Below are positions 4,377 to 19,222 of a stretch of 19,222 nucleotides of DNA, in pieces (positions within the stretch are counted from its first letter, which is position 1; each line of letters starts with the position of its first letter). A program made the position numbers and the translations under genes. The notes under the pieces are model-generated. The model saw only the letters and a program-made list of their open reading frames with translations, was not told where the DNA came from and ran no database searches. The stretch is from a virus (lineage: Duplodnaviria; Heunggongvirae; Uroviricota; Caudoviricetes), in the IMG/VR virus record IMGVR_UViG_2654588181_000006, positions 1 to 19,222 of that record, one strand, 5' to 3'.

Positions 4377-4844
4377 TCAGAAACTGCACAACCAGCAAAT
4401 TAACCTTTCGGAGTAACGCAAATGTTCGCTGGCAGACAACCCAACAGATGCACTCGCTTTGTTTTTTGCGGGCCTGACAAACGCTTTCATGTATGCGCTG
4501 TTCGTTTCTTCCAGATGCAGAATGCGCTCAATGAGGCGTTCAGTACTCATGAAATCCCTTTGCGTAATCAGACGAAGGTAGCTCTGTTTCTGCCAGCACG
4601 CCCATTCGGCAACGCACTCAAACTTACTGCAAAACCAGGAAAAAACAAAAAACGCCAGCCCGCAAAGACTCATCAGGACGGGGAAACCTACGAGAAGAAA
4701 GGAGAATACCGCAGCAATCAGTGCCCCGGCGCGCAACACGGCAGCGGCTTTATTGCTGAGTATGAAAACCATCTCTTCCAGCCAGTAGCTGTACCACAGA
4801 TGGAAAAAAATCTTCTTGTCTGCTTGCTCCATAGCAACAGGCAT
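4377..4844 (-). CDS. Hypothetical membrane protein (155 aa) encoded antisense to the early operon
   Basis: ORF 4377..4850 (minus). ATG at 4844..4842 is preceded by GGAGG with a 7-nt spacer. The protein has a clear hydrophobic hairpin (AGALIAAVFSFLLVGFPVLMSLCGLAFFVFSWF). The plus-strand ORF overlapping it (4422..5537) is low-complexity and looks spurious. Confidence 0.55.
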   Translation of the reverse strand: MPVAMEQADKKIFFHLWYSYWLEEMVFILSNKAAAVLRAGALIAAVFSFLLVGFPVLMSLCGLAFFVFSWFCSKFECVAEWACWQKQSYLRLITQRDFMSTERLIERILHLEETNSAYMKAFVRPAKNKASASVGLSASEHLRYSERLICWLCSF

Positions 4845-5025
4845 AAACAACCTCCATTGTTAATAAACGCCGCTATCCTTCGGCGCATTCCATTTTTGCG
4901 CCGCGATTATACATACTTCAGCACGCAACACAAAAACCGCTTGCCAGCGCTCGTTGAGTCGGGTTACATTTCCGCTGCACCTCATAAAACGGGTGCCGGG
5001 ATTCTCAACCCGCTGACTACACACG

Positions 5026-5057
5026 CGCACAACCGCGCCAGCGGTTTTTTTGTGCGT
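5026..5057 (+). terminator. Terminator-like hairpin with U-tract
   Basis: ACCGC(5032-5036)-gcca-GCGGT(5041-5045) followed by seven T (5045-5051); flanking CGCACA (5026-5031) and TGTGCG (5052-5057) are also complementary. Short stem, so tentative. Confidence 0.3.
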
Positions 5058-5092
5058 ACTGTATTGCCACGTCTTATTCGCGTCAGAATTAT

Positions 5093-5168
5093 GGCGGGGC
5101 GTACGGGGCCGACTTCGGTCGGGCCGGGATCGTGTGTAGCCGGTGTTGAGAACCCCGTACGTCTCGCC
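5093..5168 (+). repeat. Inverted-repeat structured element with an inner C(UUCG)G hairpin
   Basis: GGCGGGGCGTACGGGG (5093-5108) pairs with CCCCGTACGTCTCGCC (5153-5168) at 14 of 16 positions, with a perfect 9-bp core. Inner hairpin CCGAC-TTCG-GTCGG at 5109-5122. The 10-mer GATTCTCAAC occurs at 5000-5009 and 5176-5185, and inverted (9 of 10) at 5145-5154. Confidence 0.35.
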
Positions 5169-5230
5169 ACCCCGAGATTCTCAACTCTGGATGGTGAGTT
5201 TTCAAAACTTACTATACACGAGGCCACGTC

Positions 5231-5461
5231 ATGGCAAACCGCAAGCAACAGCGCGCCCGCGCTGAGCGTATTCACATCCGCAGCGAAATCAACCGCAGAC
5301 TTTTTCGCGCAACACGCGTCGCGCAAATCATGCACATCAATATGTTGCATGAGCGCAGCCACGCACTATCAAACATTTATTCCGCCTCTGTTTTCAGCTA
5401 TCTGGCGGATGATCTGCACGAGCTTCAACAGCTCATCCAGCAGCAAAACAAACTCCATTAA
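5231..5461 (+). CDS. Hypothetical small basic protein (76 aa)
   Basis: ATG 5231 preceded by GAGG (5220-5223). N-terminus MANRKQQRARAERIHIRSEINRR is strongly basic. Lies immediately downstream of the structured region. Confidence 0.45.
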   Translation: MANRKQQRARAERIHIRSEINRRLFRATRVAQIMHINMLHERSHALSNIYSASVFSYLADDLHELQQLIQQQNKLH

Positions 5462-5533
5462 TTCCTGTTCCGGGCCTTTCCTGCACCTTGCGGCGGGAGG
5501 CCTTCGCACATCTGTAACAAGAGGATTGCCGCA

Positions 5534-5899
5534 ATGATTCTCGCCAACGACTTTCTTGAATACCTGCTCAACACAGAGCGTGATCTTGCCGCTCGCGTGC
5601 GTGATCGTTATGACATGTACCTGAAATCCCTGCCTGTACTGCAGCTCGCTGACGGAAAGATTGTTATTGATGGTCGCTACATGATTGACAGCCACGAGGG
5701 AAATTACAGGCTTTACCGCATTGAAGGTGGCACCCCGTCCGTTATTGGCATTTACCAGCGCCCATCCTCTGCAATCGTCGATGTGATTGCCGACAGCATC
5801 CGCATCACACATCGCCATGCCGACACAGAAGACACCGTGCTGGAAATTCAGCGGCTGGCTACAGTCTGCCGCGACACCCTGAATGGCATGACGAAGTAA
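5534..5899 (+). CDS. Hypothetical protein (121 aa) immediately upstream of gene A
   Basis: ATG 5534 preceded by AGAGGA; stop 7 nt before the gpA start. Confidence 0.6.
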   Translation: MILANDFLEYLLNTERDLAARVRDRYDMYLKSLPVLQLADGKIVIDGRYMIDSHEGNYRLYRIEGGTPSVIGIYQRPSSAIVDVIADSIRITHRHADTEDTVLEIQRLATVCRDTLNGMTK

Positions 5900-8804: not shown

Positions 8805-9737
8805 ATGAAAATTTGTATCGACGACGGCTCCACCAACATCAAGCTGGCATGGACTGAGAACGGCGAACGCCGCAACGCCATCAGCCCGAACAGCTTCAAG
8901 TCGGAATGGTCTGCGCCGTTCGGCGGCACGCAGCCCGCGAACTACATGCTTGATGGCGTGCGCTATGGTTTTGATCCGGTCAGCGATCGCTTTGTCCAGA
9001 CGACCGACACGCAATACCAGTACAGCGATGTGAATGTCATTGCCATTCATCACGCGCTGGTCAAATCAGGCATCACGCCACAGGAGGTGGATGTGGTTGT
9101 CACCCTGCCACTGAGCGAGTATTTCGACACAAACGCACAGCCGGACATGGCCAACATCAACCGCAAAAAAGCGAACGTTATGCGCCCGGTGGAGTACCAG
9201 AACGGCGAAGCATTCACTATCCGTAACGTGCGGGTTATGCCTGAATCCATTCCGGCTGGCTTTAAGGCACTGGCTGACATGAGTCCGTTTGAATCCCTGC
9301 TGATTGTGGATTTGGGCGGAACCACGCTGGATGTGGCAAAGGTTCAGGGGCAACTGGCAGGTATCAGCCAGGTGTTTTGCGATCCACACGTAGGCGTTTC
9401 TCTGATGGCCGATGCCGTACTGTCGGTGATGGCCACTAACGGTATGCGCACCAGTCACCACATCGCCAATACCATTATCGAACATCGCCATGATGAAGCC
9501 TGGCTGCGCCAGCACATCCACAATGACGCGCATTACGCCAGCCTGATGGCGGTTATTCGTGAAAAGGAAGAAACACTGAAACAACGCGTGATCCGCGCGC
9601 TGGCGGGTTTTTCGGGTTACGGGAAGTTACAGGAACTGATGCCACTGGCGATCGTATGGCCTCCGCCACCGGGCGGGAGCTGGCCGCAACAACAGGGACC
9701 AGCGCCGGAGGCAGCGGAGCCGGGACCACGGGTGTGA
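8805..9737 (+). CDS. ParM/StbA-like actin-family ATPase, 3' end apparently truncated or replaced
   Basis: N-terminus MKICIDDGSTNIKLAW closely matches the ParM start (MLVFIDDGSTNIKLQW, from memory), with further blocks SPNSFK, QYSDVNV..HHAL, PESIPAGF, DLGGTT, IIEHRHD and LAGFSGYGK. After about residue 270 (near nt 9626) the reading frame turns proline-rich (LAIVWPPPPGGSWPQQQGPAPEAAEPGPRV) and overlaps the convergent tape-measure ORF, so the actin-fold C-terminus is probably missing. Confidence 0.65.
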   Translation: MKICIDDGSTNIKLAWTENGERRNAISPNSFKSEWSAPFGGTQPANYMLDGVRYGFDPVSDRFVQTTDTQYQYSDVNVIAIHHALVKSGITPQEVDVVVTLPLSEYFDTNAQPDMANINRKKANVMRPVEYQNGEAFTIRNVRVMPESIPAGFKALADMSPFESLLIVDLGGTTLDVAKVQGQLAGISQVFCDPHVGVSLMADAVLSVMATNGMRTSHHIANTIIEHRHDEAWLRQHIHNDAHYASLMAVIREKEETLKQRVIRALAGFSGYGKLQELMPLAIVWPPPPGGSWPQQQGPAPEAAEPGPRV

Positions 9738-12267
9738 TATTAATTGCGGGGGCAGGCTTACTGACCTGTGCAATCTTTCGCTCCTGCCACTCCCCACGAA
9801 CAGCAAGTGCGCGGGGCAGGTTCTTAAAGACAATATCGCCGGGGCCAATACGTTTTTTTGTCTCATCAACCAGCTTACCTGTGTTATCAGCAATTTTGCT
9901 GAGTCTGCGTAGCGTCCCGGTATTGCTGTCTGTGAGTGGTTTGTTGTCTTTGGGTTTATCACCCCCGGTGCCATTGCCATTTTCCACAGGCTTCGGCGGA
10001 TTGATTTTCGCCAGGTCCCCCTGAAGCAAGGCAACCTTGTCCTGAAGAATGGCCGCACGCTGTGCGTCTTCGATTTTCTTGCGCGCCCTTTCCGCTTCAT
10101 CCGGAAGGACGCCAAGTTTTTCAAGTATCCACGCCAGCGTATCCAGTAGCATTTTTGCAGGTGTCAGAACAAGCTGTAACGCACCGCCAAGAACGTTACC
10201 GAATATCTCGCCAGCACTGGTACATTTATCCAGCGTTTCCTTGCTGGACTCCATCGGTGACAGCAGCGATTTAAACCAGTTAAACACCTGACTGATCCCG
10301 CTTCCGATTGCGTCAAAAACAGGGCCAAACCGTTCAAAGGTTTCGCGCAACGGAGCCAGCCGTTCCATAATCCCGCTGAACACCCCGGCATAAAACGCCT
10401 TAATGGGTTCCCAGTATTTCCAGATGAGAACCGCCGCAGCCACAAACGCAGCAGCAATCAATCCGACCGGACTGAACAGCGCCCCGATAGCACCCCCCAG
10501 CAAAGAAACGGAACCCGTCACCATTCCCCATAGTGCTGGCAGGACCCTGACAGCATTCATTGATCCGGTCAGGAGAGAAAAACCAAGACGCAGTTTTGCC
10601 AGCGGGCCAGCAAGCACACCAATAGCCAGCGACAACGAGCCAACCGTTGCAGTCATTGCCAGCAACGCACCGCCTGCTATCAGTAGCTGGCGCGTCAGTA
10701 CCGGATGGGCCTGCGCCAGCGAGGTGATTTTTTCAAGCACCCGCGTGAGCCACTGCGTGACAGAACGCAGCGGACCGTCAACCAGATCACTGATGCGAAT
10801 ACGAAGACCTTCCCATGCGCTGTCGAGATTTTTCAGGTCCCCATCAAGATTATCGGCCATTACTTTTGCAACGCGATCGGCCTCTCCCCTTGCCCCCTGC
10901 AATTCTCTGGTCAGTTTTTGCAGCTCTCCTGAACCAGCCGCCGCAACAAGCGTCTGCAAACCAACGAACGCCTCTTCTCCGGCGATGTCCTTGAAGAAGG
11001 AAACCTGGTCCACCTGTCCGTATTTTTGTGTCGCCTTATAGAGATCAAGCAGCACATCCTCCATCGGGCGCATTTTGCCTCTGGCGTCAGCAACTGACAC
11101 TCCCAGCTCTTTCAGCGCATCAGCCGCAGCTTTTGGCGGTGATGCAAGGCGGGACAGACTTGCGCGCATGGCCGTACCAGCATCGCTTCCACGAAGGCCA
11201 TTATTGGCAAGCATCCCGGCCATGGCTGCCGCTTCTTCAAGACTGATACCAAGTTTTGCGGCAACCGGACCGGTATACTTCATGGTTTCGCCCAGCGCGC
11301 GTAAATCAGTATTGGTCCGGGTGAATGCCGCTGTCAGCGTATCGCCAACCCGGTCCATTTGATCGGCTGTCAGGTTGAACTGTGTGAGGATATTGGAGCC
11401 TATATCAGCCGTCTCGCCGAGTTCGACGCCACCTGCCAGCGCCATATTAAGAACACCGGGCAATGCGGCCTGAATGGCCTGCGGAGTAAAACCAGCCATT
11501 GCAAGAAATGCCTGTCCACTGGCGGCATCGCCTGCGGTGAACTGCGTTTCAGAGCCAAGTTTTAACGCCTGCTCACGCAGCGCCTTAAACTGCGGGCTGT
11601 TCTGGTCGATTCGCGTCAGTGCCTGAACGCGGGACATCTCTTTGCCGAACCCGATCGCAGGCTGCAAAAAACGCCCGGCAGCATAGCCGCCCGCCGCTGC
11701 CGCACCAATTGCCAGCGCACCACCTGTTTTCAGTTTTCCCGCTGTTTCCTGCGCGCGCGAATACCGCTCACGCGCCCGCGTTACACGCGCAAGCGCCTGC
11801 CGTTCGCGTTCAAGCTGGTTGTTGTACTGTTCGGTGCGTCTGATGGCCTGCTGGATGGTGTTATCGCTGCCTGTCAGGGAAATGCCGTGGCGTTTCAGCT
11901 CTCCGCCAAGTTCCCGCATTTTCTGAATTTCCCGTGTGCGCGATTCATTCAGGCGTTCAAGCCGGGTGCTTAACTGCTGCATCAGCTTTTGTTGTTTTTC
12001 GCTGAGCACTGTACCCGTGCGTTGTAACTGATTAAGGGCATTAAGCTGGCGTCGTGCTTTCAATATGCCAGCATCCGCTTTACTGACAGCGTCACGGGCG
12101 CGCTCAAATGAACGCGCCTGACGCTCGAGATTTTTGATCGCCCCCTGCGTTCGCTGGATGGAGTCACCAAACTGCCCCATCAGGCGGCAGGCGTTTTCGG
12201 CAGGCCGGGTCAGCCTGTCAACGGCGCTGAAAGCGACCCGGATATCAAGAGTCTTCATTATCTGCAT
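9553..12267 (-). CDS. T: Tail tape measure protein (P2 gpT-like)
   Basis: 904-aa ORF: N-terminal coiled-coil region, Gly/Ala-rich hydrophobic central segments, and position directly downstream of the E/E' chaperone pair with a 23-nt overlap. The last 70 or so residues are P/A/V-rich and read antisense into the ParM-like gene, so the native 3' end is uncertain. Confidence 0.85.
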   Translation of the reverse strand: MQIMKTLDIRVAFSAVDRLTRPAENACRLMGQFGDSIQRTQGAIKNLERQARSFERARDAVSKADAGILKARRQLNALNQLQRTGTVLSEKQQKLMQQLSTRLERLNESRTREIQKMRELGGELKRHGISLTGSDNTIQQAIRRTEQYNNQLERERQALARVTRARERYSRAQETAGKLKTGGALAIGAAAAGGYAAGRFLQPAIGFGKEMSRVQALTRIDQNSPQFKALREQALKLGSETQFTAGDAASGQAFLAMAGFTPQAIQAALPGVLNMALAGGVELGETADIGSNILTQFNLTADQMDRVGDTLTAAFTRTNTDLRALGETMKYTGPVAAKLGISLEEAAAMAGMLANNGLRGSDAGTAMRASLSRLASPPKAAADALKELGVSVADARGKMRPMEDVLLDLYKATQKYGQVDQVSFFKDIAGEEAFVGLQTLVAAAGSGELQKLTRELQGARGEADRVAKVMADNLDGDLKNLDSAWEGLRIRISDLVDGPLRSVTQWLTRVLEKITSLAQAHPVLTRQLLIAGGALLAMTATVGSLSLAIGVLAGPLAKLRLGFSLLTGSMNAVRVLPALWGMVTGSVSLLGGAIGALFSPVGLIAAAFVAAAVLIWKYWEPIKAFYAGVFSGIMERLAPLRETFERFGPVFDAIGSGISQVFNWFKSLLSPMESSKETLDKCTSAGEIFGNVLGGALQLVLTPAKMLLDTLAWILEKLGVLPDEAERARKKIEDAQRAAILQDKVALLQGDLAKINPPKPVENGNGTGGDKPKDNKPLTDSNTGTLRRLSKIADNTGKLVDETKKRIGPGDIVFKNLPRALAVRGEWQERKIAQVSKPAPAINITPVVPAPLPPALVPVVAASSRPVAEAIRSPVASVPVTSRNPKNPPARGSRVVSVFLPFHE

Positions 12268-16114: not shown

Positions 16115-18253
16115 TCAGGCAATCTCGCGACCAACATCGTCATTTGCCGCAAAAGCTGATAGTAACAAATTATCACACTCAGTTATGACATATTCTGGAA
16201 TGAGATCGAATCTAGCCGGATCCAGCTGGCAGATAAACTCATTTTCGATATGATAGGTTTCATTAATAAATTTCTGAATTACAGAGTTTGTATGCTCAAT
16301 ACCCATTAACCTGAAAACTTGCAATTTTTCGTAGCTACTTTTGCAACTGAAATAAAGCGTGGTGAGAAAGTTTTCGCAGGTGATTTTTGCTAGCTCTACC
16401 TTATAGTTGAAATCTGGAATATGATTAATTATTTCGTGACAACCTAAATTTTCACTAACTTCTGACATTAACGAATATTCCCCGTCGATCTTCGCCAAGC
16501 GCCTATCCTCCAGAAATTCCCGCTTATGAAAAAGATTTGAAAGCACTTGATAGGCATCCCCCAGATCATCAAGGATTTCGTAATGACGGCGAAGATATAT
16601 CAACTTAATAATATCGTCACTCACAGACTGTAGAGCCGATGTGCAGATTTGAGCAAAAGTTTTGATATCCGAATTTGAAATTGGTTGCTCTGTAATAACA
16701 CCATTACTGTAGCGGAGATAAGCTGCTGAAACTTGATTATCAAATTGCTGCCTAACAGCGCGAATAGTATCGATGATTGGCTCAACATCATGCGTCAACA
16801 TCAGCACTGTTTTACTCTTAAGACAATCAGATGGCTCTCTACGAAAAAGCATTTCAAGAATCGCAAACTTCTTATTTTTATCGAACGAGGAAATGGGATC
16901 ATCCAAAATAATCAGACTTGGTTTTCTAGAAAGACATTCATACATGAAGAGCACGAGGGCAAACGCATTTCTTTCACCGTAACTTAGATGTTGGCTACCA
17001 CCAGTGACGACATCTGTATGATCTACATGATAGAGTTGTAGTCGTGGCTGTGCATCGTCTGTTATCCGCACACGGTAACGATAACCAGCATAGGATAGAA
17101 AATCATTGATATTTTTTTGGTGCTTTATAACGAGCTGGCGTACTTTATTCCGCTGCTGATTCAGTTTACCCTGAAGTGGTCCAGCGCTTGCAATTAGATC
17201 AGTCAGAGAAGTATTGAGTGCATCAACAATACGTGTGGTTTCTTCTGATTGAAGTTCAGTAAAGAAGTCCAGATTCAACTTGTAAGAGGCGAGTTTAGCA
17301 GCTACATCGTCTCCTTCTGTGAAGCTAAATCCGGAAAGCGTTTTAAGCACGGTAAGTTTATCTATTAGATCATCTGTTTGAGATTTAAGGGTGATAAGAT
17401 ATGTTTCATGCTGCTGCTCAAGACCATTAGGAAGGGTTGTGATTTCTTTAAGACGATCACGGGCAGAGTCAGTAAGGTAAATTCCTAAACGCTGAATGAC
17501 ATCAACAAGCTCCATCAAATTTTTGATGACAGCTTGGTCATATTCTACTCCAACCTGTTGAATTCGTTGTTGTTGTTGTTCGGTAGATTCACTACTGCAA
17601 TAAGGACAGTACTCACCCGCAAGTTCACCAAACTCTGTTAGCCCTTTTGTCTGCCAAGCAATCCACTGCACACTTTTATTACTAGTTATCATGTTTCTGT
17701 ACGGTTCAAGTGCGGCAGGGATATGAAGAAGTTTATTACCTCCAGCAAGCGCTTTCATACCCTTTGTACTTTTACTAAGAGCAGATGCTGCAGTGACTTT
17801 AAATGCACTGGATAAAACAGTGAGATCGCTCAATAGGGTTTCCAGTTGTGTATGCTCGGTAAACACCTGACGGATCGTCGAAATAATTAATTCTATTTCA
17901 CTCTCTGTTCTGATATACGCGTCAGTTTTGATTAATATATCGAAACTGTTGGCTACAAGCTCATCCTGACGGAATGTGAACTGGCTAACATACTCCTCAT
18001 TGAAACACATTATATTATCTAGTTGTTCCATTCCGGTCACAGAGGGCGCAACATTATCGGGGTTATTTGCCCTGAATTTAAAAGGAAGTAATTCTGCCAA
18101 ACAAGCTTCCTGCCCAGGCAAACTGAACTGCATCGCCCGAGCAATAGTGCTTTTCCCTGTACCATTCGGCGCAAAACGAATATTCAACTTTTTTTCGGCT
18201 AGAGAAACAGTAGCAAAGTCAATGCTATTACAGTAACTAATTTCAATTTCCAT
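16115..18253 (-). CDS. ABC/Rad50-type ATPase with CxxC zinc hook and C-terminal putative nuclease domain (RloC/PrrC-like architecture); candidate anti-phage defence protein
   Basis: 712-aa ORF; ATG 18253..18251 preceded by AAGAAGG with a 7-nt spacer. Walker A APNGTGKST (18146-18172); about 380 aa of predicted coiled coil containing EYCPYCSS (CxxC, 17597-17608); signature-like LSYGERN (16967-16987); Walker B LIILDD (16898-16915); H-loop LTHD; then a roughly 225-aa C-terminal domain with a candidate Rx5H motif RLMGIEH (16292-16312). The gene is visibly AT-rich and opposite in orientation to the flanking D and ogr. Confidence 0.8.
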   Translation of the reverse strand: MEIEISYCNSIDFATVSLAEKKLNIRFAPNGTGKSTIARAMQFSLPGQEACLAELLPFKFRANNPDNVAPSVTGMEQLDNIMCFNEEYVSQFTFRQDELVANSFDILIKTDAYIRTESEIELIISTIRQVFTEHTQLETLLSDLTVLSSAFKVTAASALSKSTKGMKALAGGNKLLHIPAALEPYRNMITSNKSVQWIAWQTKGLTEFGELAGEYCPYCSSESTEQQQQRIQQVGVEYDQAVIKNLMELVDVIQRLGIYLTDSARDRLKEITTLPNGLEQQHETYLITLKSQTDDLIDKLTVLKTLSGFSFTEGDDVAAKLASYKLNLDFFTELQSEETTRIVDALNTSLTDLIASAGPLQGKLNQQRNKVRQLVIKHQKNINDFLSYAGYRYRVRITDDAQPRLQLYHVDHTDVVTGGSQHLSYGERNAFALVLFMYECLSRKPSLIILDDPISSFDKNKKFAILEMLFRREPSDCLKSKTVLMLTHDVEPIIDTIRAVRQQFDNQVSAAYLRYSNGVITEQPISNSDIKTFAQICTSALQSVSDDIIKLIYLRRHYEILDDLGDAYQVLSNLFHKREFLEDRRLAKIDGEYSLMSEVSENLGCHEIINHIPDFNYKVELAKITCENFLTTLYFSCKSSYEKLQVFRLMGIEHTNSVIQKFINETYHIENEFICQLDPARFDLIPEYVITECDNLLLSAFAANDDVGREIA

Positions 18254-18891: not shown

Positions 18892-18951
18892 CAGGCAGAA
18901 TTGCCGGAGTAACAAAAAAGCGATAGATTACGCGCGGGTGCCTTTCGGCTG

Positions 18952-19215
18952 ATGGTCGGAGGGAATACCCGAAGGCCAGATGTGGAAAGGCCCCGGAAAA
19001 CATCTCTGTTTAACCGAGGCCCTAACCGCATTACCTTGACAAGTGAAAGGTTAGCGCCTCTCCGGAAAAGGAGCAAGTGCTATGTCGCAAAAATCGCTTA
19101 CGGCCATCACGTTCTGCGTGACGGCAATCCTCATCATCTGGATGTTGCACGGTTCGCTGTGCGAAATACGGATGAGCTTCTGGGGAGCGGAGTTTGCGGC
19201 GTTCTTACAGTGTAA
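18952..19215 (+). CDS. mok-like overlapping reading frame
   Basis: An 87-codon frame starts about 130 nt upstream of the hok-like gene and ends 7 nt before its stop, in a different frame. This mirrors the mok/hok overlap of hok/sok loci. Its true start is not determined. Confidence 0.35.
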   Translation: MVGGNTRRPDVERPRKTSLFNRGPNRITLTSERLAPLRKRSKCYVAKIAYGHHVLRDGNPHHLDVARFAVRNTDELLGSGVCGVLTV

Positions 19216-19222
19216 GCAGTAA
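19082..19222 (+). CDS. hok: Hok/Gef-family type I toxin (46 aa)
   Basis: Not in the ORF track (under 60 aa). ATG 19082 preceded by AAGGAG. Translation MSQKSLTAITFCVTAILIIWMLHGSLCEIRMSFWGAEFAAFLQCKQ has one TM helix followed by SLCEIR and E-x-AAF-x-x-C, as in Hok (KSLCEIR, EVAAFMA) and HokA (SLCELH, ELAAFLACK), recalled from memory. Stop at 19220-19222 is the last codon of the window. Confidence 0.75.
   Translation: MSQKSLTAITFCVTAILIIWMLHGSLCEIRMSFWGAEFAAFLQCKQ

Follow-up and report, generated by a model that had tools for sequence, protein, structure and literature searches.

The right-hand end of the 19,222-nt stretch of phage DNA analyzed here (hereafter, the window) very probably carries a hok/sok-type type I toxin–antitoxin moron, located at the ogr/attR end of a P2-like (P88/Xuanwuvirus-type) prophage, for which a mechanism like that of plasmid R1 hok/sok is proposed. 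The locus as a whole is an ordinary, already known element, and its identification as Hok is correct. Its discovery value is low, as RefSeq and phage records annotate the gene and the exact ORF has been catalogued along with a toxicity test. The peptide family, the conservation of the locus, the two alternative folds of the mRNA and the homology to the R1 promoters and hairpin come from the present analysis, while toxicity and the R1 mechanism are taken from the literature. The coordinates of the features are collected in Table 1.

Table 1. Features of the hok/sok-type locus, in positions of the window.
Feature	Position	Strand	Remarks
Candidate hok promoter, −35 TTGCCG	18901–18906	+	Read from the sequence; 10 nt past the ogr stop; 17-nt spacer to −10
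hok promoter, −10 TAGATT (TANNNT type)	18924–18929	+	Aligns with R1 hok −10 TATGAT, at equal distance from +1
Predicted hok mRNA, 5′ 287 nt	18936–19222	+	Rfam RF01794 match starts at 18936; aligns with R1 +1
tac element GGGUGCCUUUCGGCU	18936–18950	+	Pairs with fbi (full-length MFE) or with ucb (truncated RNA)
mok-like open frame, 87 codons	18952–19215	+	−1 frame; judged fortuitous
ucb box GGAAAGGCCCC	18984–18994	+	Alternative partner of tac and of the GAGG region; truncated-RNA MFE
Closed hairpin of full-length mRNA, GGCCCCGG...CCGAGGCC	18989–19021	+	Its complement is the Sok terminator hairpin
GAGG	19016–19019	+	Positional equivalent of the R1 mok Shine-Dalgarno sequence; alignment with R1
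Sok-target hairpin of truncated mRNA, GAGGC-CUAACC ... GGUUAG-GCCUC	19016–19060	+	Truncated MFE; hypervariable loop 19028–19048
dcb/anti-SD stretch GCGCCUCUCC	19054–19063	+	Partner of the hok SD region (full-length fold) or of GAGGC (truncated fold)
hok Shine-Dalgarno sequence AAGGAG	19068–19073	+	Read from the sequence; ATG 8 nt downstream
hok coding sequence, 46 aa	19082–19222	+	Pfam HOK_GEF above threshold; RefSeq WP_000078916.1
Predicted Sok RNA, ~56 nt	18985–19040	−	3′ end uncertain (18978–18986); R1 homology and folding
Sok promoter, −10 TAACCT	19048–19053	−	Aligns with R1 TATCCT; invariant in 41 loci
Sok promoter, −35 TTGCTC	19071–19076	−	17 nt from −10; corresponds to R1 TTGCGC; TTG invariant in 41 loci

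The 46-aa Hok peptide

An earlier note, made from the DNA letters, had described a 46-aa ORF with the Hok hallmark, preceded by AAGGAG, overlapped by an upstream frame and located directly after ogr. All these elements are present as described; the last base of ogr is 18891, and its product is recognized by Pfam Ogr_Delta (52.6 bits). The ORF at 19082–19222 translates to MSQKSLTAITFCVTAILIIWMLHGSLCEIRMSFWGAEFAAFLQCKQ. The proposal that it encodes a Hok-type toxin is borne out by significant alignments: Pfam PF01848 (HOK_GEF) matches with 29.9 bits, above its gathering score of 22 (E 4e-7; profile positions 5–42 of 42), PHROG 251 matches with E 1.3e-22, and BLASTP aligns 31 aa with R1 Hok at 39% identity (E 5e-7). 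The NCBIfam HokA model (NF007290) is also matched (E 2e-8), with 34 bits versus an equivalog cut-off of 89, which is not reached. To judge from these matches, the ORF is a real Hok-family toxin gene, and the 46-aa peptide is neither HokA nor any of the named K-12 paralogs.

Hok/Gef toxins are peptides of about 50 aa that have a transmembrane helix near the N-terminus, and the 46-aa peptide conforms to this pattern, its hydrophobic stretch comprising residues 6–24. Residues M1, C16, T18, L30, C31, E32 and E41 are given as conserved in more than 80% of Hok peptides in the Hok diversity catalogue of Escalera-Maurer et al. (2026 preprint; bioRxiv 10.1101/2025.08.07.668861), and all seven have counterparts here (M1, C12, T14, L26, C27, E28 and E37). 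The reference used for R1 was an R1-type plasmid copy, and the R1 Hok sequence was confirmed by 100% plasmid matches annotated as Hok toxin. Both peptides share the conserved core C..T...LCE...E.AAF; R1 Hok is 52 aa long and ends in AYESGK, whereas the peptide from the window has 46 aa and a C-terminal Cys (LQCKQ). Within the close clade of the gene, 14 of the 16 polymorphic codons are purely synonymous and dN/dS is 0–0.08, also for alleles that have no mok frame. Hok is under strong purifying selection.

The same catalogue includes construct 72_1621 (LRP137, pAZ3-72_1621), identical in DNA and protein to 19082–19222, so that this member of cluster 72 shows no difference from the ORF of the window. 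Hok 60%-identity cluster 72, with members 72_1621 and 72_1589, is labelled high-abundance, and the SD predicted there for the identical ORF is 'GGAGC' (bioRxiv 10.1101/2025.08.07.668861). According to the text of the preprint, only 19_179, 60_1482 and 69_1540 were non-toxic among the 45 homologs tested; 72_1621 is among the 42 of 45 reported to be toxic under arabinose induction, in an assay that consists in arabinose over-expression of the ORF with a standard SD. The toxicity assay that the earlier note had suggested had hence already been performed, by over-expression of the identical ORF. Mok, Sok and mRNA structure were, as stated in that text, deliberately outside the analysis, and no Mok prediction was attempted (bioRxiv 10.1101/2025.08.07.668861).

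Distribution of the locus

Among 5426 complete E. coli genomes, 1754 (about one third) carry the 441-nt locus, at up to 9 places per genome, and the annotation given there is 'Hok/Gef family protein'. The last 623 bases of the window are 100% identical to the chromosome of E. coli 1303, in which the gene (WP_000078916.1, 'Hok/Gef family protein' in RefSeq) immediately follows ogr and precedes ihfA. Phage P88 and other Xuanwuvirus (Peduoviridae) show 94–96% DNA identity over 623 nt and annotate the gene as 'MokW-like host killing'. The P88-type gene is likewise located after ogr, at the end of the genome; it differs in the Sok-target loop (CATATCTACCTTAAG versus CCGCATTACCTTGAC in the window), in a mok frame that is closed and in one amino acid (A15V). 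Apart from the position after ogr, which is found in P2-like prophages at different attachment sites, the locus is seen in lambdoid and Stx prophages, where it follows lom or lies between tail genes, and beside an L31 paralog.

The search for relatives outside the Enterobacteriaceae returned only Escherichia and Salmonella, plus two probably contaminated records. The latter are Firmicutes-labelled assemblies, a Planococcaceae MAG (L014) and Vagococcus sp. (L015), each with a 98%-identical copy of the E. coli prophage locus, most likely by contamination of those assemblies.

A further prophage-borne hok/sok is hokW-sokW of the Stx2 prophage Sp5, for which toxin and antitoxin activities have been shown experimentally (PMC8621323). 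HokW differs from the peptide studied here: it has 51 aa (MKQQKAM...DYESEK) and belongs to cluster 35 together with HokD (primers in PMC8621323; preprint Table S2). Identity of the locus with hokW-sokW of Sp5 was considered and rejected, as the primers encode MKQQKAM...DYESEK, a HokD-like peptide of another cluster. The label 'MokW-like' attached to the 46-aa clade is a PHROG name and not an identity. In phages 933W (L012, 570–710), Sp5 and VT2-Sakai, a copy of the 46-aa Hok clade lies downstream of lom in addition to hokW-sokW; this copy is unannotated in several records.

The predicted hok promoter and mRNA

The R1 hok −10 box, TATGAT, spans −12 to −7 (PMC9841398). In relatives from other contexts, TACATT, TAAATT or TACAGT occupies the position of the hok −10 box. 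The assignment of TTGCCG as the hok −35 box is weak, because this motif is not conserved where the locus has other contexts. The consensus promoter scan called no hok promoter, the candidate matching at 8 of 12 positions only, and it did not call the Sok −10 box either (3 of 6 positions match). As the consensus promoter and terminator scans returned nothing for either hok or Sok, the assignments rest on R1 homology and on conservation.

The full hok transcript is predicted to have about 409 nt and to extend some 122 nt past the end of the window. For its 3′ part, the E. coli 1303 copy was used, as a proxy for the 3′ UTR only, given that strain 1303 matches just the right-hand part of the window. 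Past the hok stop, a 3′ hairpin is followed in this copy by AAGGCACCC, which is the 5′ GGGUGCCUU in reverse complement, and this in turn by a terminator that includes a T run; fbi box and terminator are located 52–122 nt beyond the hok stop codon. The suspicion voiced in the earlier note, that downstream elements had been cut off at the window edge, was therefore well founded: both lie just outside and are present in the 1303 copy. The window ends at the hok stop, and the contigs L023, L025, L029 and those of about 45 other IMG/VR loci end exactly 3 nt past it. When the prophage boundary is called at the last gene, the hok mRNA loses its fbi box and its terminator, that is, prophage callers cut the locus at the hok stop and drop elements that the mechanism needs.

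Rfam model RF01794 matches the plus strand at 18936–19095 over its full length (E 2.7e-8 for the whole window), with 48.4 bits, below the gathering score of 59. The model is named 'sok', and it ends in the hok AUG; it hence represents the sense hok leader and not the antisense RNA. As the model has hok-leader sense orientation, its plus-strand match does not locate Sok. On this alignment, the leader in the window is taken to be a divergent member of the RF01794 leader family.

The predicted Sok RNA

At the sequence level, the Sok gene is predicted to run from 19040 to about 18985 on the minus strand under its own promoter, inside the stretch around 18950–19050 in which the earlier note had expected it, with boxes that align with those of the R1 Sok promoter. 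That note had also suggested looking on this strand for a promoter and a terminator; an R1-like promoter, a terminator-type hairpin and a predicted RNA of about 56 nt are there, but the consensus scan found no canonical terminator after Sok. The predicted RNA consists of a 17-nt single-stranded 5′ tail (19040–19024), a hairpin (19023–18987) and UUUC. It folds with −21.5 kcal/mol (z −3.6, ranging to −4.1), and R1 Sok, folded alike, shows the same architecture. The sequence of the tail would allow it to base-pair with the hypervariable loop of the target hairpin. Among relatives, a second version of the top of the Sok hairpin occurs, in which the changes are fully compensated.

The Sok-target loop (19024–19048; columns ~101–125 of alignment A2) is the only hypervariable stretch of the leader. 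It occurs in at least six sequence types, which combine mosaically with two types of the neighboring hairpin top, and all loop types inspected have a YUNR-type tetranucleotide at a constant position. The hypervariable and mosaic character of the loop suggests recombination and the existence of distinct specificity groups, which would avoid cross-talk between several copies per genome.

Alternative folds of the hok mRNA

The full-length 409-nt RNA folds with −179.9 kcal/mol (z −7.6). In this predicted structure the hok SD forms pairs with the anti-SD and the ucb:GAGG hairpin is in its closed form, while nucleotides 1–15 pair with ...AGGUCGAUAAGGCACCC at the 3′ end, giving a 15-pair 5′–3′ closure. 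Its tac–fbi core is formed by GGGUGCCUU and AAGGCACCC, fbi being read from the identical copy outside the window. Upon removal of the 70 nt at the 3′ end, tac switches to ucb in the predicted fold, and GAGGC-CUAACC pairs with GGUUAG-GCCUC, exposing the variable loop complementary to the Sok tail. A search for tac and fbi by folding, as proposed in the earlier note, thus finds tac in the window and fbi in the E. coli 1303 copy, and both alternative folds could be computed.

Pairs were counted in an alignment of 41 loci, 40 of them distinct. In the 40 distinct loci, 93.2% of the full-length structure is paired versus 36–45% in slid controls, and the truncated structure is paired to 94.7%, the tac–fbi helix to 94.6%, the tac–ucb helix to 98.7% and the Sok-target helix to 99.3%, all these percentages being inflated by the derivation of the structures from one of the aligned sequences. 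In the full-length structure, 29 pairs are changed on both sides versus 16.4 in shuffles, and none of 500 shuffles reaches 29. The tac–ucb helix is almost invariant, and the changes in the Sok-target helix are one-sided only. As tac is invariant in the clade, the tac–fbi helix shows G-C to G-U changes only, fbi varying exclusively from C to U and keeping G-U pairs. A compensated tac/fbi pair is seen only in comparison with R1, which has GGCGCUU/AAGCGCC, in contrast to GGGUGCC/GGCACCC in the window. The tops of the closed hairpin among relatives are AAACA/UGUUU and GUUAAC/GUUGAC, both fully paired.

The leader can be matched base by base to that of R1 hok/sok at the −10 box, +1, tac, the ucb:GAGG hairpin with its C-A mismatch, and dcb. 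The two loci also share the Sok −35 and −10 boxes with their 17-nt spacing, the 3′ hairpin, an fbi box complementary to the 5′ end and the switch between a full-length and a truncated fold; the R1 locus is borne by a plasmid, whereas that of the window lies on a prophage.

Opening energies were compared with R1 as control. The predicted cost of opening the GAGG region falls upon truncation from 17.5 to 13.3 kcal/mol in the window, versus 18.0 to 12.6 in R1. Opening the hok ribosome-binding site (RBS) is predicted to cost 9–15 kcal/mol, and about 9–11 for the allele of the window, versus 18.3, unchanged, in R1. Neither the ensemble unpaired probabilities nor the opening energies show an effect of truncation on the hok RBS, which is predicted to be still closed. 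Direct unmasking of the hok SD by 3′ truncation, which would make mok unnecessary, is hinted at by the truncated MFE and was rejected, as ensemble and opening energies show no change at the RBS.

In the full-length fold, the Sok-target loop (~19033–19047; A2 columns 109–123) pairs with a segment just 3′ of the post-stop hairpin (341–354). This helix between the loop and the 3′ UTR has the most both-side changes (6 of 12 pairs), and in the model a covarying long-range helix thus seems to hide the Sok target as long as the RNA is full-length.

The mok-like frame

The earlier note had taken the open frame at 18952–19215 as mok-like, a reading that we do not maintain. The ATG of this frame (18952, corresponding to mRNA +17) is located in the tac stem, has no Shine-Dalgarno sequence and aligns with an ATG of R1 that is not that of mok. 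R1 mok starts at +116, 7 nt after GAGG, and in the window no ATG follows GAGG. The predicted product has no match in Pfam, NCBIfam or PHROGs.

Conservation was surveyed in 97 loci with 37 distinct upstream regions, a sample biased towards near-identical prophages. In window-type alleles, the −1 frame is open from −169 or −130. In P88-type alleles and many relatives it is open only from −43, −28 or −16, lacks a start codon and in many cases ends 58 nt short of the hok stop. No ATG, GTG or TTG ORF reaching within 20 nt of the hok ATG is found in 13 of the 37 distinct regions (26 of the 97 loci); where an upstream ORF is present, it starts at −130, −103, −100, −46 or −28. A synonymous TGC/TGT polymorphism at Cys27 of hok toggles a stop in the mok frame. 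The best positional analog of R1 mok is a TTG at 19036, in the Sok-target loop, 16 nt from GAGG, which is absent in many relatives. A short leader ORF starting at ATG 18980 was rejected as a mok substitute, since it has 19, 8, 1 or more than 60 codons depending on the allele.

As the frame 18952–19215 lacks an SD, starts in the tac stem, is not conserved and has no family match, we regard it as probably fortuitous. The mok frame is thus an unreliable hallmark in the 46-aa clade. The lack of conservation of the mok frame, together with an RBS that is predicted to be closed after truncation, leaves one step of the R1 mechanism without an identified counterpart. A tentative reading, to which we give rather low credence, is that this common prophage Hok clade keeps the R1-type RNA switch and Sok and has lost a dedicated mok, Hok being licensed without the textbook mok–hok coupling.

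Proposed mechanism and role of the locus

By analogy with R1, a weak promoter (−10 TAGATT, +1 at 18936) would give rise to a stable hok mRNA of about 409 nt. In the full-length RNA, tac–fbi pairing would free ucb, which would hold the GAGG/Sok-target region in a hairpin, and access to the hok ribosome-binding site would be blocked as well, so that this RNA would be neither translated nor bound by Sok. Slow trimming of the 3′ end would remove fbi; tac would then pair with ucb, and the GAGGC-CUAACC hairpin would present its variable loop. Sok, about 56 nt long and made from the opposite strand, would bind the loop by its 17-nt tail, and the duplex would be destroyed (by RNase III in R1). When the unstable Sok is no longer synthesized, either by loss of the element or by transcription shut-off, for example upon phage infection or induction, the processed mRNA would be translated, and the 46-aa Hok would insert in the inner membrane and kill or arrest the cell. 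The transcript ends, the 3′ processing, the expression of Sok, the RNase III cleavage, the trigger and the licensing of Hok we infer.

How, and whether, Hok is made from such a locus can be read in several ways. That the ORF is open by chance and resembles Hok only fortuitously in its motif has practically nothing in its favor beyond its small size, and is refuted by the Pfam, PHROG and Rfam scores, by the spread over 1754 genomes and by the conservation of Hok. It is improbable, to a far lesser degree, that the locus is a silenced or decaying copy, with a peptide that is toxic when forced and never made from its native locus. Silence has been proposed for the K-12 chromosomal hok loci. The absent or variable mok frame and the weak promoters would fit with it, and toxicity is, as far as the preprint describes it, known only from arabinose over-expression with a standard SD (bioRxiv 10.1101/2025.08.07.668861); however, all RNA elements have stayed intact and show high conservation across some 1750 genomes, purifying selection acts on the peptide, and there is neither an IS insertion nor a frameshift. 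A more serious possibility, though one that we still consider doubtful, is that the 46-aa clade (cluster 72) works without mok, Hok being licensed directly or by any short upstream ORF. The upstream regions in which no ORF reaches hok argue for it, as do the varying start of the ORF where one exists, the purifying selection on Hok that holds in frame-less alleles too, the synonymous polymorphism at Cys27 and the lower cost of opening the hok RBS as compared with R1. Against it, truncation does not lower the predicted RBS opening energy and the GAGG region still acts like the mok initiation region of R1; moreover, the allele of the window does have open frames, including that from TTG 19036, and the survey draws on a biased sample in which non-canonical starts are possible.

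For the R1-like toxin–antitoxin locus, stabilization of the prophage is not the sole role to be considered. It is conceivable, if on the unlikely side, that the locus acts instead in earlier lysis and release after induction, or in abortive infection. R1 hok/sok reportedly gives abortive infection against T4, and a candidate defense ATPase of family PDC-S06 (920 bits) adjoins the locus. In addition, hokW-sokW doubles the release of Sp5, and its Sok disappears on induction (PMC8621323), but HokW, a HokD-like peptide of 51 aa, falls in another Hok cluster. Prophages are about 4-fold enriched in hok genes, yet the preprint, in its reported analysis of defense systems, found no enrichment of hok near them (bioRxiv 10.1101/2025.08.07.668861). 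The sequence does not discriminate between these roles, and stabilization, lysis assistance and abortive infection are all three compatible with it.

Other features of the window

The ATPase mentioned above is encoded on the minus strand at 16115–18253, between gpD and ogr. It is a 712-aa AAA_13 ATPase that matches PADLOC candidate defense family PDC-S06 over its full length, with weaker matches to LmuB, AbiLi and AriA, and is probably an anti-phage moron beside the hok locus.

The gene content of the window includes integrase, gpA, tail sheath, tube, tape measure, gpD and ogr; genes for head, lysis or baseplate functions are absent from it. None of the complete E. coli genomes covers at least 80% of the window. 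E. coli 1303 was rejected as its source, as only the right-hand part matches and the 1303 prophage is a complete P2-like one. Taken together, the missing head, lysis and baseplate genes, the lack of a genome with such coverage and the completeness of the 1303 prophage suggest either that a P2-like element has undergone deletion or rearrangement, or that the contig is chimeric. The ORF for a ParM/StbA-type actin-like segregation protein (8805–9737, plus strand) follows gpA, the replication gene, and shares 185 nt with the 3′ end of the tape-measure gene (9553–12267, minus strand).

A 371-aa ORF at 4422–5537 has no Pfam match. Within it or overlapping it, isrK (61.8 bits) and C4 antisense RNA (76.8 bits) lie side by side at 4977–5174 (plus strand), both above the Rfam gathering thresholds, and this pair resembles the immunity RNA arrangement of P1/P7/P4 type, here in a P2-like element.
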